From Candidatus Nitrospira inopinata (GTDB taxonomy: Bacteria > Nitrospirota > Nitrospiria > Nitrospirales > Nitrospiraceae), in contig NZ_LN885086.1 in NCBI RefSeq assembly GCF_001458695.1, forward strand, positions 2,760,001-2,792,000: a stretch of DNA of 32,000 nucleotides, in the 5' to 3' direction. A program made the translations under genes and the position numbers. The notes below the pieces were generated by a model. The model was not told where the DNA came from. It did not search any database and was given only the letters and a program-made list of their open reading frames with translations. Shown here piece after piece: positions 23,619 to 25,307 of the stretch (position 1 is the stretch's first letter; every line of letters starts with the position of its first letter).

Positions 23619-25307
23619 ATGCCTCAAAAGAAAAACCAGCCGAAGAGTCCATCATCTGCCGGCGCCACCGTCGGCTACGAAGCCGAGCTGTGGAAAATGG
23701 CCGACGCCCTGCGCGGCTCGATGGACGCCGCAGAGTACAAGCACGTCGTGCTCGGGCTGATCTTCCTCAAGTACATCTCGGATGCCTTCGAGGAGCAGCA
23801 CGCCAAGCTCGAAGCCGAGCGCGCGCGGGGCGCGGACCCTGAAGACCCGGATGAATACCGCGCGCACAACATCTTCTGGGTTCCGCCCGAGGCGCGCTGG
23901 GCGCGCCTGAAGTCGCAGGCCAAACAGCCCACCATCGGCCAGCTCGTGGACGACGCGATGGCCGGCATCGAGCGCGACAACCCGGCGCTCAAGGGCGTGC
24001 TGCCCAAGGACTACGCCCGCCCCGCGCTCGACAAGACGCGGCTCGGCCAGCTCATTGACCTCATCACCAACATTAAGGTCGGCGACGAGGCTGCTCGCGC
24101 CAAAGACGTCCTCGGCCGTGTGTACGAGTACTTCCTCTCGCAGTTCGCGAGCGCCGAGGGCAAGAAGGGCGGCGAGTTCTACACGCCGCGCTGCGTGGTC
24201 AAGCTGCTAGTCGAGATGCTGGAGCCCTACCACGGCCGGGTGTATGACCCCTGCTGCGGCTCCTCGGGCATGTTCGTGCAGTCGGTGGAGTTCATCCGCG
24301 CGCACGCGAACGGGAACGGCAATGGCGGCAAGACGGCCAAGGGCGCGAAGGGGGGCTCGAAGCCCGACATCTCGATCTACGGCCAGGAGTCGAACTACAC
24401 CACGTGGCGGCTCGCCAAGATGAACCTCGCCATCCGCGGCATCGAGGGCCAGATCGCGCACGGCGACACCTTCCACAACGACCGCCACCCCGACCTCAAG
24501 GCCGACTTCATCCTCGCCAATCCGCCGTTTAACGTCTCGGACTGGGGCGGCGAGCGCCTGCGCGACGACAAGCGCTGGAAGTACGGCGTGCCGCCCGTGG
24601 GCAACGCCAACTTCGCCTGGGTGCAGCACATCGTCCATCATCTCGCGCCCGCGGGTGTGGCCGGCTTCGTGCTCGCCAACGGCTCAATGTCGTCGAACCA
24701 GTCCGGCGAGGGCGAGATCCGCAAGAACCTGATCGAGGCCGACCTCGTCGACTGCATGGTGGCGCTGCCGGGTCAGCTCTTCTACTCGACGCAGATTCCC
24801 GCGTGCCTGTGGTTCATTGCCCGCGACAAGCGCGGGCAACCCTCACCCGCCGCTTCGCGTCACCCTCTCCCACTGGGAGAGGGAAGGGGTGAGGAGCCTG
24901 CCCATCGCCTGCGAGATCGGCGAAAGGAAGTTCTCTTTATCGATGCCAGGAAGATGGGCAGGCTGGTGGACCGCACGCACCGCGAGCTCACCGACGAGGA
25001 CATCGCCCGCATCGCCCGGACCTACCACGCCTGGCGGGGCGAAAAAGACGCGGGCGAGTACGCCGACGTGCCGGGCTTCTGCAAGAGCGCCACGCTGGAG
25101 GAGATCCGCAAGCACGGCCACGTGCTCACGCCAGGCCGCTACGTCGGCGCCGAGGCGCAGGAAGACGACGGCGAGCCGTTCGACGAGAAGATGAAGCGGC
25201 TCACCGCGACGCTGCGAGAGCAGCAGGCCGAGGCCGCGAAGCTGGACAAGACCATCGGACGGAATTTGGAAGAACTGGGGTATGGACTGCGAGACCCTGA
25301 AGTTTAG
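23619..25307 (+). CDS. hsdM: Type I restriction-modification methyltransferase subunit HsdM
   Basis: ATG at 23619 follows GTGGAG. HsdM_N region [35 protein letters not shown] motif [12 protein letters not shown] and catalytic NPPFN. Contains an in-frame repeat insertion at 24841-24894. Confidence 0.95.
24841..24894 (+). repeat. Nested palindromic element (copy 1), in frame inside hsdM
   Basis: Outer arms CCTCACCC / GGGTGAGG enclose a 9-bp stem CCCTCTCCC-ACT-GGGAGAGGG. It is 54 nt (18 codons) and encodes [18 protein letters not shown] in a loop that HsdM proteins normally lack. Confidence 0.8.

Follow-up and report, generated by a model that had tools for sequence, protein, structure and literature searches.

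TM repeats in a type I restriction-modification locus

The window (the whole 32-kb stretch of DNA analyzed here) contains a type I restriction-modification (R-M) locus with hsdM, a Y1_Tnp gene between hsdS and hsdR, two hsdR relics, and hsdR itself. Four copies of a palindromic repeat lie in an 8.4-kb part of this locus. Judged by its sequence, the repeat belongs to an already known family, BoxC/PIT/TM, defined by a pyrimidine block, a loop of 3 to 5 nt, a complementary purine block (GGGAGAGGG), a short loop, and a G-rich block (GGGTGAGGG). The host genes, the repeat units (TMs), and the parts of the hsdM unit are listed below.

23619..25307, plus strand: hsdM host gene, 562 aa, HsdM_N and N6_Mtase domains, intact
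24840..24894, no strand assigned: double-armed (palindromic) TM/BoxC unit in hsdM, recognized from sequence, translation, and predicted fold
24840-24848: left arm of the hsdM unit, CCCTCACCC
24849-24862: spacer of the hsdM unit, a 14-nt mini-hairpin, GCCGCTTCGCGTCA
24863-24883: inner hairpin of the hsdM unit, CCCTCTCCC-ACT-GGGAGAGGG
24887-24894: right arm of the hsdM unit, GGGTGAGG
27761..27885, plus strand: hsdR relic 1, an internal empty-site allele; its 16-aa stretch without the repeat agrees with the consensus empty state, seen in 108 of 120 homologs
29427..29459, minus strand: canonical TM in hsdR relic 2 (ORF 29318-29578), identical to that at 30657..30689; 12-aa peptide
30551..32000, plus strand: hsdR host gene, running off the window; in the parent contig it is complete for all five HsdR domains and 1098 aa long
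30657..30689, minus strand: canonical single-armed TM in the N-terminal region of full-length hsdR; 12-aa peptide, net insertion of 7 aa
31259..31317, no strand assigned: double-armed TM/BoxC unit in hsdR, aa ~237-256; 20-aa peptide, net insertion of 24 aa versus empty alleles

Shuffled sequences predict 0.03 occurrences of the inner palindrome, CCCTCTCCC-NNN-GGGAGAGGG, in 32 kb; the window has exactly four (starts at 24863, 29439, 30669, and 31283), a count reached in 0 of 100 shuffles. All four are confined to the R-M locus, each in frame. The outer-arm word CCCTCACCC was observed five times versus 0.47 expected, and each occurrence adjoins an inner palindrome. The rest of the window (23 kb) and a further 3.3 kb outside it are free of TM copies, so that about 27 kb of flanking DNA is without one. 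The GC content is 63.7% in the R-M locus versus 59.0% in the flank.

A sequence-only reading of this DNA had described a palindromic repeat inserted in frame in hsdM and hsdR, and the reading frames are indeed open through all four copies. Several of its details required correction. The stretch at 24841-24894, from CCTCACCC through GGGTGAGG, is exactly 54 nt as described, but the hsdM frame, which starts at 23619, encodes the 18-aa peptide assigned to it from one base further upstream (24840-24893). The copy at 31259-31317, read in the hsdR frame, does share the outer arms of the hsdM copy; its asymmetric spacer, given as 14 nt, spans 13 to 15 nt and is itself a mini-hairpin of the GCGAAGC/GCTTCGC type. 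The supposed half-copies at 29430-29459 and 30660-30689 start three bases earlier, at 29427 and 30657, and each is a complete canonical unit that runs in the opposite direction. On the minus strand, both consist of the hairpin, a 3-nt loop, and GGGTGAGGG, and the G-rich, triplex-type strand of the copy at 30657-30689 is the minus strand. All four copies match the published TMECO block for block, the short copies on the minus strand and the nested ones on both strands. The nested copies have predicted folding energies of -38.6 (hsdM) and -43.1 kcal/mol, and the short ones have -18.1 kcal/mol, with z scores of -3.3 to -4.5. A search of positions 23000 to 32000 against Rfam (E <= 1) gave no match.

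Filled and empty alleles

Homologs of the host proteins show that the repeat-encoded segments are insertions and not conserved native segments of HsdM and HsdR, the outcome that had been named as fatal to the insertion claim. Of 121 aligned HsdM sequences (homologs about 84% identical), 66 show the empty state, RKNGKF. At the DNA level, the empty hsdM site reads …CGCGACCGCAAGAACGGCAAGTTCCGCGACCG…. The N-terminal HsdR insert is present in 12 and absent from 108 of 120 homologs (21-aa empty reading), and the insert at HsdR aa 231 is present in 7 and absent from 113. Relic 1, proposed earlier as an internal empty-site control, behaves as one, since the repeat is absent and the sequence matches the consensus empty state of the HsdR proteins. 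With empty sites in most homologs and intact host genes, the likeness previously drawn to the Rickettsia palindromic elements (RPEs) also stands.

Filled and empty alleles can be very closely related, as the nearest neighbors of insert-bearing HsdM alleles are empty at up to 99.4% identity. Between the near-identical alleles L258 and L259, 21 nt are replaced by 51 nt containing a TM, and 10 to 12 of the 16 substitutions in 1.6 kb are clustered at the joint. A target-site duplication was sought in this filled/empty pair and none was found. Within the window, relic 2 and hsdR are near-identical only over ~95 nt around the TM, their upstream identity is 76%, and inserted cassettes adjoin the shared patch. 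The arms of the copy type seen at 31259-31317 are perfect in one further allele (L263) and partly decayed in another (L261).

The same sites are hit repeatedly. Four HsdM alleles only ~84% identical to one another carry the type-A element at the same HsdM site and have the flanking markers WFI...RGQ / PA.RL in common. A subfamily with 38% identity has nested TMs in this HsdM loop too, and nested TMs recur at HsdR positions ~110, ~231-250, and ~440-460 (calculated from match coordinates) in HsdR proteins 37 to 71% identical to that of the window.

The same HsdM loop also carries other palindromes, among them those encoding VGARHAVPL (a GTAG REP) and YGAAGA. In an AlphaFold2 model of HsdM built from a 48-sequence alignment (mean pLDDT, 52.6), residues 399-429 appear unstructured between two strands. 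This model was too poor for placing the insert, and the alignment with PDB 3KHK was used instead, in which the hsdM insert (site at aa 404-431) falls in a gap. For HsdR, the window fragment had no match in the PDB, and the stretches of the full protein that align to EcoR124I HsdR exclude both TM sites (aa ~33-49 and ~231-263).

Nested TMs in other genomes and metagenomes

The 54-nt unit is also found in unrelated genes and phyla. Among the 124 nested copies listed as a sample from GTDB genomes, 38 (~30%) are embedded in ORFs of 250 aa or more, at a depth of at least 40 aa; 21 of these 38 have Pfam-confirmed hosts, and 9 are in hsd genes. Coding hosts include aconitase, ValRS, and UvrA, and R-M genes are strongly over-represented. 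The possibility raised beforehand that coding copies would prove to disrupt their genes is not what these deeply embedded copies show. The insertion reading withstood both refuting conditions set beforehand, since the coding copies outside the window are nondisruptive. Most copies overall nevertheless look intergenic.

A metagenome scan for the type-A left end gave the same picture, with most of the 124 matches listed appearing intergenic and mostly on soil contigs. None of the 80 loci in the output lies on the source contig. In the 124 matches, DUF559 never follows the matched hairpin directly on its downstream side, and only three loci contain DUF559 genes. Most TMs therefore have no physical tie to the nuclease. 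In viral contigs, the nested pattern was found in only eight loci.

TMs flanking a DUF559 endonuclease

The window has no DUF559 gene, and its copies contain no ORF; the association with this Vsr-like endonuclease is seen in other alleles. At the window's HsdM site, the alleles L006 and L007 have, in order, the arm, mini-hairpin, hairpin, a DUF559 ORF, hairpin, and arm, and in alleles of this type DUF559 is read in frame between the two inner hairpins. Divergent alleles share the left junction PSP(G/A)ASRHPLPxGEG at the same site, whether or not they contain the DUF559 ORF. Of seven in-frame loci with eight in-frame DUF559 ORFs between them, six loci (seven ORFs) have TM units on both sides of the ORF. 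Free-standing DUF559 genes at two loci (L130 and L180) are likewise TM-flanked on both sides. At L229, a canonical TM lies downstream only. Across modules, the upstream TM varies by site and the downstream TM is conserved. In Escherichia coli, the end of ycjD, a DUF559 gene, lies inside a degenerate TM hairpin, with TMECO #9 ~170 nt downstream.

As a word-index search for DUF559 returned only 57 proteins, an exhaustive search of representatives was used instead. Among the best 147 representatives of this DUF559 subfamily, 33 are embedded, with flanks longer than 60 aa on either side; the flanks are TM-coded in 30 of these 33. The nuclease has a conserved V-E-L-D-G-x-x-H motif, whose E, D, and H are the presumed catalytic residues. 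The Pfam hosts of the subfamily are HsdS (24), N6_Mtase (15), HSDR_N (7), Eco57I (7), and MmeI (6).

Origin and spread of the copies

The explanation we favor, with somewhat better than even confidence, is that the four BoxC/PIT/TM copies are solo forms of a DUF559 module, imported with the R-M locus and spread by short-patch conversion. The TM unit, a predicted 9- to 10-bp hairpin (CCCTCTCCC / GGGAGAGGG) followed by the third block GGGTGAGGG, is here fixed in frame within length-variable loops of HsdM and HsdR. Such insertions may be tolerated because the unit is stop-free in four of the six frames and encodes linker-like peptides rich in Pro, Ser, Gly, Glu, and Arg. The copies most likely arrived with a horizontally acquired R-M locus and not through activity in the present genome, a reading supported by the higher GC content of the locus and by the lack of TMs in the ~27 kb outside it, and they would have spread among hsd alleles by short-patch gene conversion rather than by cut-and-paste with target duplication.

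The window copies are best read as the solo (nonautonomous or scar) form of a larger module, which in other alleles carries an in-frame DUF559 (Vsr-like PD-(D/E)xK) endonuclease between two inner-hairpin copies. This nuclease is the best candidate for the nicking or cutting that would drive copying in a homing-like manner. Recombination between the two 21-bp hairpins would delete the ORF and leave exactly the nested palindrome of hsdM. The family identity, the insertions themselves, the recurrence at hot spots, the replaced patch between near-identical alleles, and the physical association of DUF559 with TMs are observed; we infer that DUF559 acts as the mobilizing enzyme, that solo copies derive from the DUF559 module, and that the insertions are neutral for R-M function. 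The reverse order, with DUF559 elements targeting preexisting TMs, fits the same anatomy.

Alternative explanations

An explanation that we consider unlikely is that TM spread is unrelated to DUF559. Replication or repair errors at hairpin or triplex DNA, or another trans-acting enzyme, would generate the repeats, and permissive loops would tolerate them; DUF559 genes would be separate selfish elements landing on TMs, as insertion sequence (IS) elements do on REPs. If DUF559 merely lands on TMs, the window copies would be preinvasion targets and not scars. The fact that most TMs have no DUF559 gene nearby agrees with this, as does the work of Holder et al., which ties TMs to local instability with no mobile element involved. 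The presence of VGARHAVPL and YGAAGA in the same HsdM loop points in the same direction, since recurrence there may reflect the permissiveness of the loop and not targeting. So does the difference between module ends, as the upstream TM differs by site while the downstream one is conserved. On the other hand, this explanation sits poorly with TM flanks on both sides of DUF559, in free-standing and in-frame forms and in unrelated taxa. It also accounts poorly for TM-coded flanks in nearly all embedded representatives and for a left junction that does not change between divergent alleles with and without the ORF.

It is improbable, in our view, that the hairpins are kept because they benefit the R-M system, whether by slowing ribosomes or stabilizing mRNA to set the HsdM/HsdR ratio or by acting as recombination hot spots for the exchange of cassettes at the hsdR 5' end. 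In favor of this, the copies are predicted to fold into very stable structures, and R-M genes are strongly over-represented among coding copies. The near-identity of relic 2 and hsdR is limited to the surroundings of the TM, with cassettes adjoining. The arms are perfectly conserved and the loops differ in alleles 81 to 83% identical in protein, which could reflect selection on structure rather than neutrality. Against a benefit of this kind, most close homologs work without the inserts, the L261 copy is decaying, and the same repeat is found in unrelated housekeeping genes. The lack of an Rfam match and literature according to which purine-motif triplexes are not formed in RNA also count against it. 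So does earlier work, as cited in the literature, in which PIT elements neither acted as promoters or terminators nor affected RNA polymerase, although this is only weak and indirect evidence against modulation of translation by the mRNA hairpins.

There is very little to recommend mobilization of the copies as REPs by the RAYT-like Y1 transposase of the same locus (27147-27773), attractive as its position beside genes with in-frame palindromes may be. This gene is flanked by, and contains, a different, GTAG-head family (GTAGGGGC...GCCCCTAC, at 27429-27499 and 27720-27747, also at 31871); neither a GTAG nor a CGTC tag is present on the TM units, and this RAYT is missing from other genomes and loci in which TMs are found. 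Finally, low-complexity peptides and the many spurious repeats of GC-rich genes might have suggested native conserved parts of HsdM and HsdR or chance palindromes in GC-rich coding sequence, but the native-segment reading is refuted by the sites being empty in most homologs, and four exact copies versus 0.03 expected, with the same 54-nt unit in unrelated genes and phyla, leave chance a negligible part.

Significance

These results have implications beyond the present locus. TM repeats fixed in frame inside intact genes of many phyla extend an RPE-like phenomenon well beyond Rickettsia. R-M genes are a preferred home of TMs, and the same few loops are hit repeatedly. One DUF559 subfamily, together with E. 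coli ycjD, is very often bracketed by TMs, and the subfamily is often in frame at sites that elsewhere hold solo repeats. For annotation, low-complexity PSPxGRG, PLPxGEG, and LSQRER segments should be read as repeat-derived inserts and not as native domains.

Returning to the DUF559 module, a broader form of the favored explanation can be put forward, although tentatively and as a possibility that we would not yet bet on. BoxC/PIT/TM repeats might serve a DUF559 (Vsr-like) nuclease as its cis-elements, in the way that REPs serve RAYTs. The DUF559 subfamily with an N-terminal HYRGG motif would then be an intein-less homing module, read in frame, looping out via TM-encoded Pro/Ser/Gly linkers and specialized on R-M genes (HsdS, HsdM, HsdR, and type IIG), and solo TMs would be its scars or nonautonomous derivatives. 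If true, this would account for how a repeat family that has puzzled biologists since the 1990s arose and spread, and E. coli YcjD would gain a function. The DUF559 link makes the question bench-testable, by asking whether YcjD or an embedded DUF559 cuts TM DNA or empty sites.

Comparison with known systems

BoxC/PIT/TM repeats have been known for ~30 years (Bergler 1992 and Hoyne & Maher 2000, as cited in PMC4666352), are conserved in hundreds of genomes, and have been the subject of biophysical work. They are intrastrand-triplex repeats (Holder et al. 2015, PMC4666352), and the triplex fold of E. coli TM oligonucleotides has been demonstrated by CD and NMR. In the literature searched, we found no function or means of spread for them. 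The E. coli TMs were described as "always intergenic" and without a mobile-element link (Holder 2015, PMC4666352). The window copies have the same blocks and loop lengths (CCCTCTCCC-nnn-GGGAGAGGG-nnn-GGGTGAGGG). The family is multicopy and spread over many phyla, with inverted "palindromic" configurations and an association with local sequence instability on record. The window copies differ from the intergenic E. coli set in that all four are in frame in coding sequence, in the nested copies with both arms around one hairpin and a GCGAAGC-type mini-hairpin in the long loop, in their concentration in R-M genes, and in the DUF559 linkage of their relatives.

RPEs are ~100 to 150 bp long, AT-rich, and not known outside Rickettsia. 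The window units share with them a palindromic repeat in frame in functional ORFs, with intact proteins and orthologs with empty sites, and are set apart by size and composition, being 33 to 59 nt long, GC-rich, and cross-phylum. They thus behave like RPEs but are not classed with them. RPEs were described by Ogata et al. (2000/2002) and Claverie & Ogata (2003), as cited in PMC3733652.

Intragenic GTAG/CGTC REPs and REP/RAYT (REPIN) systems (Di Nocera et al. 2013, PMC3733652) are also short, GC-rich, multicopy palindromes, some of them intragenic. A small nuclease gene between inverted copies of its own repeat is, by analogy, the model proposed here for DUF559. In contrast to REPs, TMs carry no terminal GTAG/CGTC, the candidate enzyme is a Vsr-like PD-(D/E)xK nuclease and not a Y1 transposase, and the window's own Y1_Tnp gene is flanked by GTAGGGGC-type repeats and not by TMs. 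MITEs, which have TIRs and a target-site duplication and typically measure 70 to 300 bp, were considered and rejected given the length of the units and the replacement of 21 by 51 nt with no duplication.

The last comparison is with homing inserts. Vsr-like homing endonucleases, of the Vsr-related/EDxHD family, have been described (PMC2677866, PMC9403480), and the ShiLan element is an in-frame, non-splicing homing insert in a phage methylase (PMC11855218). As expected of a homing insert, the same insert occupies the same site in divergent alleles, close relatives are empty, and the flanks are co-converted. The window copies differ in having no ORF, and the endonuclease is found only in related alleles. 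Like ShiLan, these related alleles have an endonuclease-bearing insert in frame with a DNA methylase, with a predicted loop-out and presence or absence among close alleles. The HNH ORF of ShiLan is out of frame, whereas that of DUF559 continues the host frame between TM hairpins, and its inserts are found in bacterial HsdS, HsdM, HsdR, and type IIG enzymes.

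Repeat copies in the restriction-modification locus

Exactly four copies of the inner palindrome CCCTCTCCC-NNN-GGGAGAGGG are present in the window (at 24863, 29439, 30669 and 31283), where 0.03 would be expected; none of 100 dinucleotide-preserving shuffles reached that number. The outer-arm word CCCTCACCC is present five times (0.47 expected), each time adjoining an inner palindrome. All four copies lie within the restriction-modification (R-M) locus, and none was found elsewhere in the window (23 kb) or in the next 3.3 kb past its end:

24841-24894, nested copy in hsdM, from CCTCACCC to GGGTGAGG, 18-aa peptide encoded from 24840
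29427-29459, minus strand, short copy in relic 2 (a partial hsdR 5' copy), 12-aa peptide
30657-30689, minus strand, short copy in hsdR, 12-aa peptide
31259-31317, nested copy internal to hsdR, 20-aa peptide

The sequence-only reading held that no copy breaks its frame, and indeed hsdM (ATG at 23619, 562 aa) and hsdR (1098 aa with the full domain set, read in the parent contig) are intact. It had also located the hsdM repeat correctly, but the peptide frame begins at 24840. Its "half-copies" are real and in frame, but they are complete canonical minus-strand units with the slightly different spans listed, because their blocks match the unit of a known family. The nested copies have predicted folding energies of -38.6 and -43.1 kcal/mol, and the short copies one of -18.1 kcal/mol (z, -3.3 to -4.5).

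Judging from these matching blocks, the family is BoxC, renamed PIT and then TM or TMECO. Each unit consists of a hairpin, CCCTCTCCC-nnn-GGGAGAGGG, then a 3-nt loop and then GGGTGAGGG, and the isolated strand adopts a purine-motif intrastrand triplex of very high stability (PMC4666352). TMs have been found in >260 genomes; the 23 copies of Escherichia coli K-12 were described as "always intergenic," without promoter or terminator activity or a link to mobile elements, and as associated with local instability (PMC4666352). The two nested copies are palindromic units, in which a single hairpin carries a third block at each side. The 14-nt asymmetric spacer noted earlier, GCCGCTTCGCGTCA, forms a small hairpin of its own, whose complement contains GCGAAGC, a classically stable DNA mini-hairpin. 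Other genomes keep the same architecture and the TTC/GAA loop with a different stem (e.g., GGCCTTCGGCC and GCGCTTCGCGC). An Rfam search returned no family matching the repeat. A further small hairpin, TTCCGGC-TTTT-GCCGGAA (31318-31342), directly adjoins the nested TM of hsdR on its 3' side; the right arm of this hairpin is native hsdR (PEL), and one homologous locus keeps it as TCCGGC-CTCT-GCCGGA.

Filled and empty insertion sites

The R-M family is unusually conserved (~84% protein identity over many phyla), and empty sites can therefore be read easily. In HsdM, between ...CLWF(L/I)ARD and RDRRG..., 66 of 121 aligned sequences carry the 6-aa RKNGKF where the window has 28 aa. In the alignment with PDB 3KHK, most of this insert falls in a gap, with the strand IPACIWFL on one side and VLFIDA on the other; the predicted structural model was poor. 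At the HsdR N-terminal site, a 21-aa stretch in 108/120 homologs corresponds to 28 aa in the window (net, +7 aa), and the internal nested copy is missing in 113 of the 120 (net, +24 aa). Relic 1 (27761-27885), another partial hsdR 5' copy, has a 16-aa stretch without the repeat, the same as the empty consensus of HsdR homologs, and thus serves as the internal empty-site control that it had been proposed to be. By these alignments the window copies are true insertions, and the peptides are not native conserved segments, as the in-frame insertion reading had anticipated.

Distribution among genomes

A scan of species-representative genomes for the nested pattern gave at least 120 loci, with 124 copies among the matches listed, whose hosts include Omnitrophica, Acidobacteria, Anaerolineae, Nitrospira, Verrucomicrobia, cyanobacteria, Pseudomonas and Enterobacter. 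The nested unit is stop-free in four of six frames, and all three forward frames are used (PSP..GRG, PLP..GEG and LS..RER). Coding copies are a minority; 38 of the 124 listed are placed ≥40 aa inside ORFs of ≥250 aa. Among the matches listed, 21 hosts were confirmed by Pfam, such as aconitase, ValRS, IleRS, UvrA, PurL, ThyX, TrpE, RNase D, CofD, alcohol dehydrogenase and glycosyltransferases; several DNA methylases (N6_N4, Eco57I and MmeI) also host the repeat, and hsdM or hsdR genes hold another nine copies. Coding copies among the matches listed are thus common, in intact genes rather than the disrupted ones considered beforehand, with R-M genes heavily over-represented.

In metagenomes, the left end of the type-A insert (the exact HsdM insert type of the window) gave >120 matches, mostly in stop-codon-rich contexts; the three complete nested copies without a DUF559 ORF (solos) among the matches listed were all in HsdM-like genes. 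Viral contigs held the nested pattern in only eight loci.

Association with DUF559 nuclease genes

At the site of the window's HsdM insert, two HsdM homologs (P0091 and P0105) are longer by ~120 residues, which Pfam assigns to DUF559/MTES_1575, a Vsr-like PD-(D/E)xK nuclease domain. Their DNA reads CCCTCACCC, mini-hairpin, hairpin CCCTCTCCC-nnn-GGGAGAGGG, in-frame DUF559 ORF, second hairpin and GGGGTGAGGG; the window's element is exactly this module minus the ORF and one hairpin. The same arrangement occurs in an HsdR (P0188).

We surveyed the sequences flanking 13 DUF559 ORFs from 11 loci (genome and metagenome scans, two HsdM look-ups and E. coli). TM units lie on both sides of seven of the eight in-frame R-M ORFs (L006, L007, L021, L034, L072 and two in L103), the eighth (L036) having no adjacent TM. 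Among free-standing genes, L130 and L180 have TMs on both sides, clearly inverted in L130, and L229 has a canonical TM downstream only. E. coli ycjD (annotated DUF559) ends in ...RRSPSP*, with its stop codon in the loop of a degenerate TM hairpin, and TMECO #9 lies ~170 nt downstream. At this locus (NC_000913, 1351040-1351410), the last ~50 nt of ycjD is partly duplicated before TMECO #9.

An exhaustive search of representatives with a flank-free member of this DUF559 subfamily listed 147, with Pfam hosts including HsdS (24), N6_Mtase (15), HSDR_N (7), Eco57I (7) and MmeI (6). The core was recognisable in 137, of which 33 are embedded with >60 aa on each side, and 30 of these 33 have TM-coded flanking peptides. 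The comparisons show DUF559 genes physically bracketed by TMs, in frame at the same sites as solos. Predicted programmed-inversion targets are enriched in "DUF559 domain-containing protein," as would suit genes that lie between inverted repeats. Homing endonucleases include an accepted family of Vsr-related nucleases (PMC2677866, PMC9403480), and a phage methylase with an in-frame, non-splicing, endonuclease-bearing insert has been described (PMC11855218). Within an incomplete coverage of the literature, no paper linking TMs to DUF559 was found among those on DUF559 or ycjD in relation to palindromes, mobile elements or R-M.

We tentatively suggest that TMs might be cis-elements of a DUF559 nuclease system, a possible reading in which we place limited confidence. 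In the mechanism that we consider most likely, the nuclease would make a break, and the TM-bearing allele would be copied in a homing-like manner; the Pro/Ser/Gly-rich linkers encoded by TMs would allow the module to protrude from its host protein as a loop, and recombination between the two 21-bp hairpins would remove the ORF and leave a solo nested palindrome. The main rival reverses this order: TMs would spread via another route, and DUF559 elements would target existing TMs. The data gathered here fit either order.

Recent and repeated change

The nearest neighbour of an insert-bearing HsdM allele is usually empty, with filled/empty pairs as close as 99.4% (P0009/P0037) and 99.0% (P0018/P0110) identity. 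In the latter, the only pair compared at the DNA level, 10-12 of 16 substitutions in ~1.6 kb cluster at the site, where 51 nt with a canonical TM stands in place of 21 nt (RKNGKFR), and the gene comparison revealed no target-site duplication. This change looks like a short conversion tract rather than a transposition footprint.

One HsdM loop holds at least eight different inserts, including several TM variants and GTAG-type REPs. The type-A insert (PSP[G/A]ASRHPLPxGEG...) occupies this site in four alleles mutually only ~84% identical, with common flanking markers, and also the corresponding loop in an HsdM subfamily with only 38% identity. In other HsdRs of the genome sample (37-71% identical), nested TMs lie at positions ~110, ~231-250 and ~440-460, which by our own arithmetic on scan coordinates are the variable sites of close homologs. 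Alleles sharing just 81-83% identity keep the nested-TM arms perfectly and differ in the loops; in another allele the arms are decaying, so there may be some constraint or repeated conversion. A part for the mRNA hairpins in translation, raised by the sequence-only reading, is a hypothetical one. A second length-variable, low-complexity stretch of 19 aa (HsdM aa 230-249; 24306-24365) may be another old insertion site; a 40%-identical HsdM has a nested TM near this position.

Origin and neighbouring features

The R-M island (23600-32000) has 63.7% GC versus 59.0% in the flanking chromosome (1-23000), consistent with horizontal acquisition, and its HsdM and HsdR share ~84% identity with proteins attributed to Meiothermus, Armatimonadota, Binatia, Nitrospiraceae, KSB1 and others. 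Given the GC contrast, the lack of TMs in the flanking DNA scanned and the presence of both HsdR inserts in the closest HsdR homologs, the window copies probably arrived with the island. They may be near-neutral passengers.

The hsdR 5' end is present three times (27761-27885, 29318-29578 and the full gene, 30551-32000). Relic 1, an empty-site allele, has an AAA_14/DUF4143 gene (27918-29321) after it. In relic 2, an hsdR N terminus is joined to a tail like the hsdS C terminus (29492-29547 versus 27061-27116), ahead of a RhuM/Fic gene. Near-identity between relic 2 and hsdR is confined to ~95 nt around the TM, which suggests that cassettes were inserted through recombination at the 5' end of hsdR, possibly at the repeat. 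The RhuM/Fic ORF (29575-30549 region) stops at 30480, and a typical C-terminal continuation (33 aa) is readable in another frame to 30549, which suggests a frameshift near 30450 (pseudogene or sequencing error). Between hsdM and hsdS lies a small DUF4258/MqsA-antitoxin-like gene pair (25282-25790), and the last ~87 nt of hsdM (25199-25285) is repeated with 75% identity at the start of the hsdS ORF region (25820-25906).

A gene for a RAYT-like Y1 transposase (27147-27773) lies between hsdS and hsdR, with REPs GTAGGGGC...GCCCCTAC at its 3' end and in frame within its ORF (27429-27499 and 27720-27747). This REP is also in frame in hsdR (31871-~31925; 19-aa peptide), at an HsdR hot spot with TMs or DUF559 in other alleles; VGARHAVPL, the peptide of the RAYT-adjacent REP, occurs in the HsdM hot-spot loop of one homolog (P0112). 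A third in-frame palindrome, CACGACGCC-CCAA-GGCGTCGTG (GSYTTPQGVV), lies beyond the window at HsdR aa 785 (~32905; ~19287-19316 of locus L001) and is present in 26/120 HsdR homologs and missing in the rest.

Comparison with known systems

The sequence family is already known as BoxC/PIT/TM. Compared with the literature searched, what is apparently new is the occurrence of coding, in-frame TMs across phyla, their clustering in R-M genes within a small number of hot-spot loops and the bracketing of DUF559 nuclease genes by TMs. Like the intragenic GTAG/CGTC REPs (Di Nocera et al., PMC3733652), the window TMs are in-gene palindromes, but they are not members of that family. The suggested resemblance to the Rickettsia palindromic elements (RPEs) holds for behaviour, both being palindromic repeats that have become fixed, in frame, within functional genes, but not for membership, as the window copies are not RPEs.
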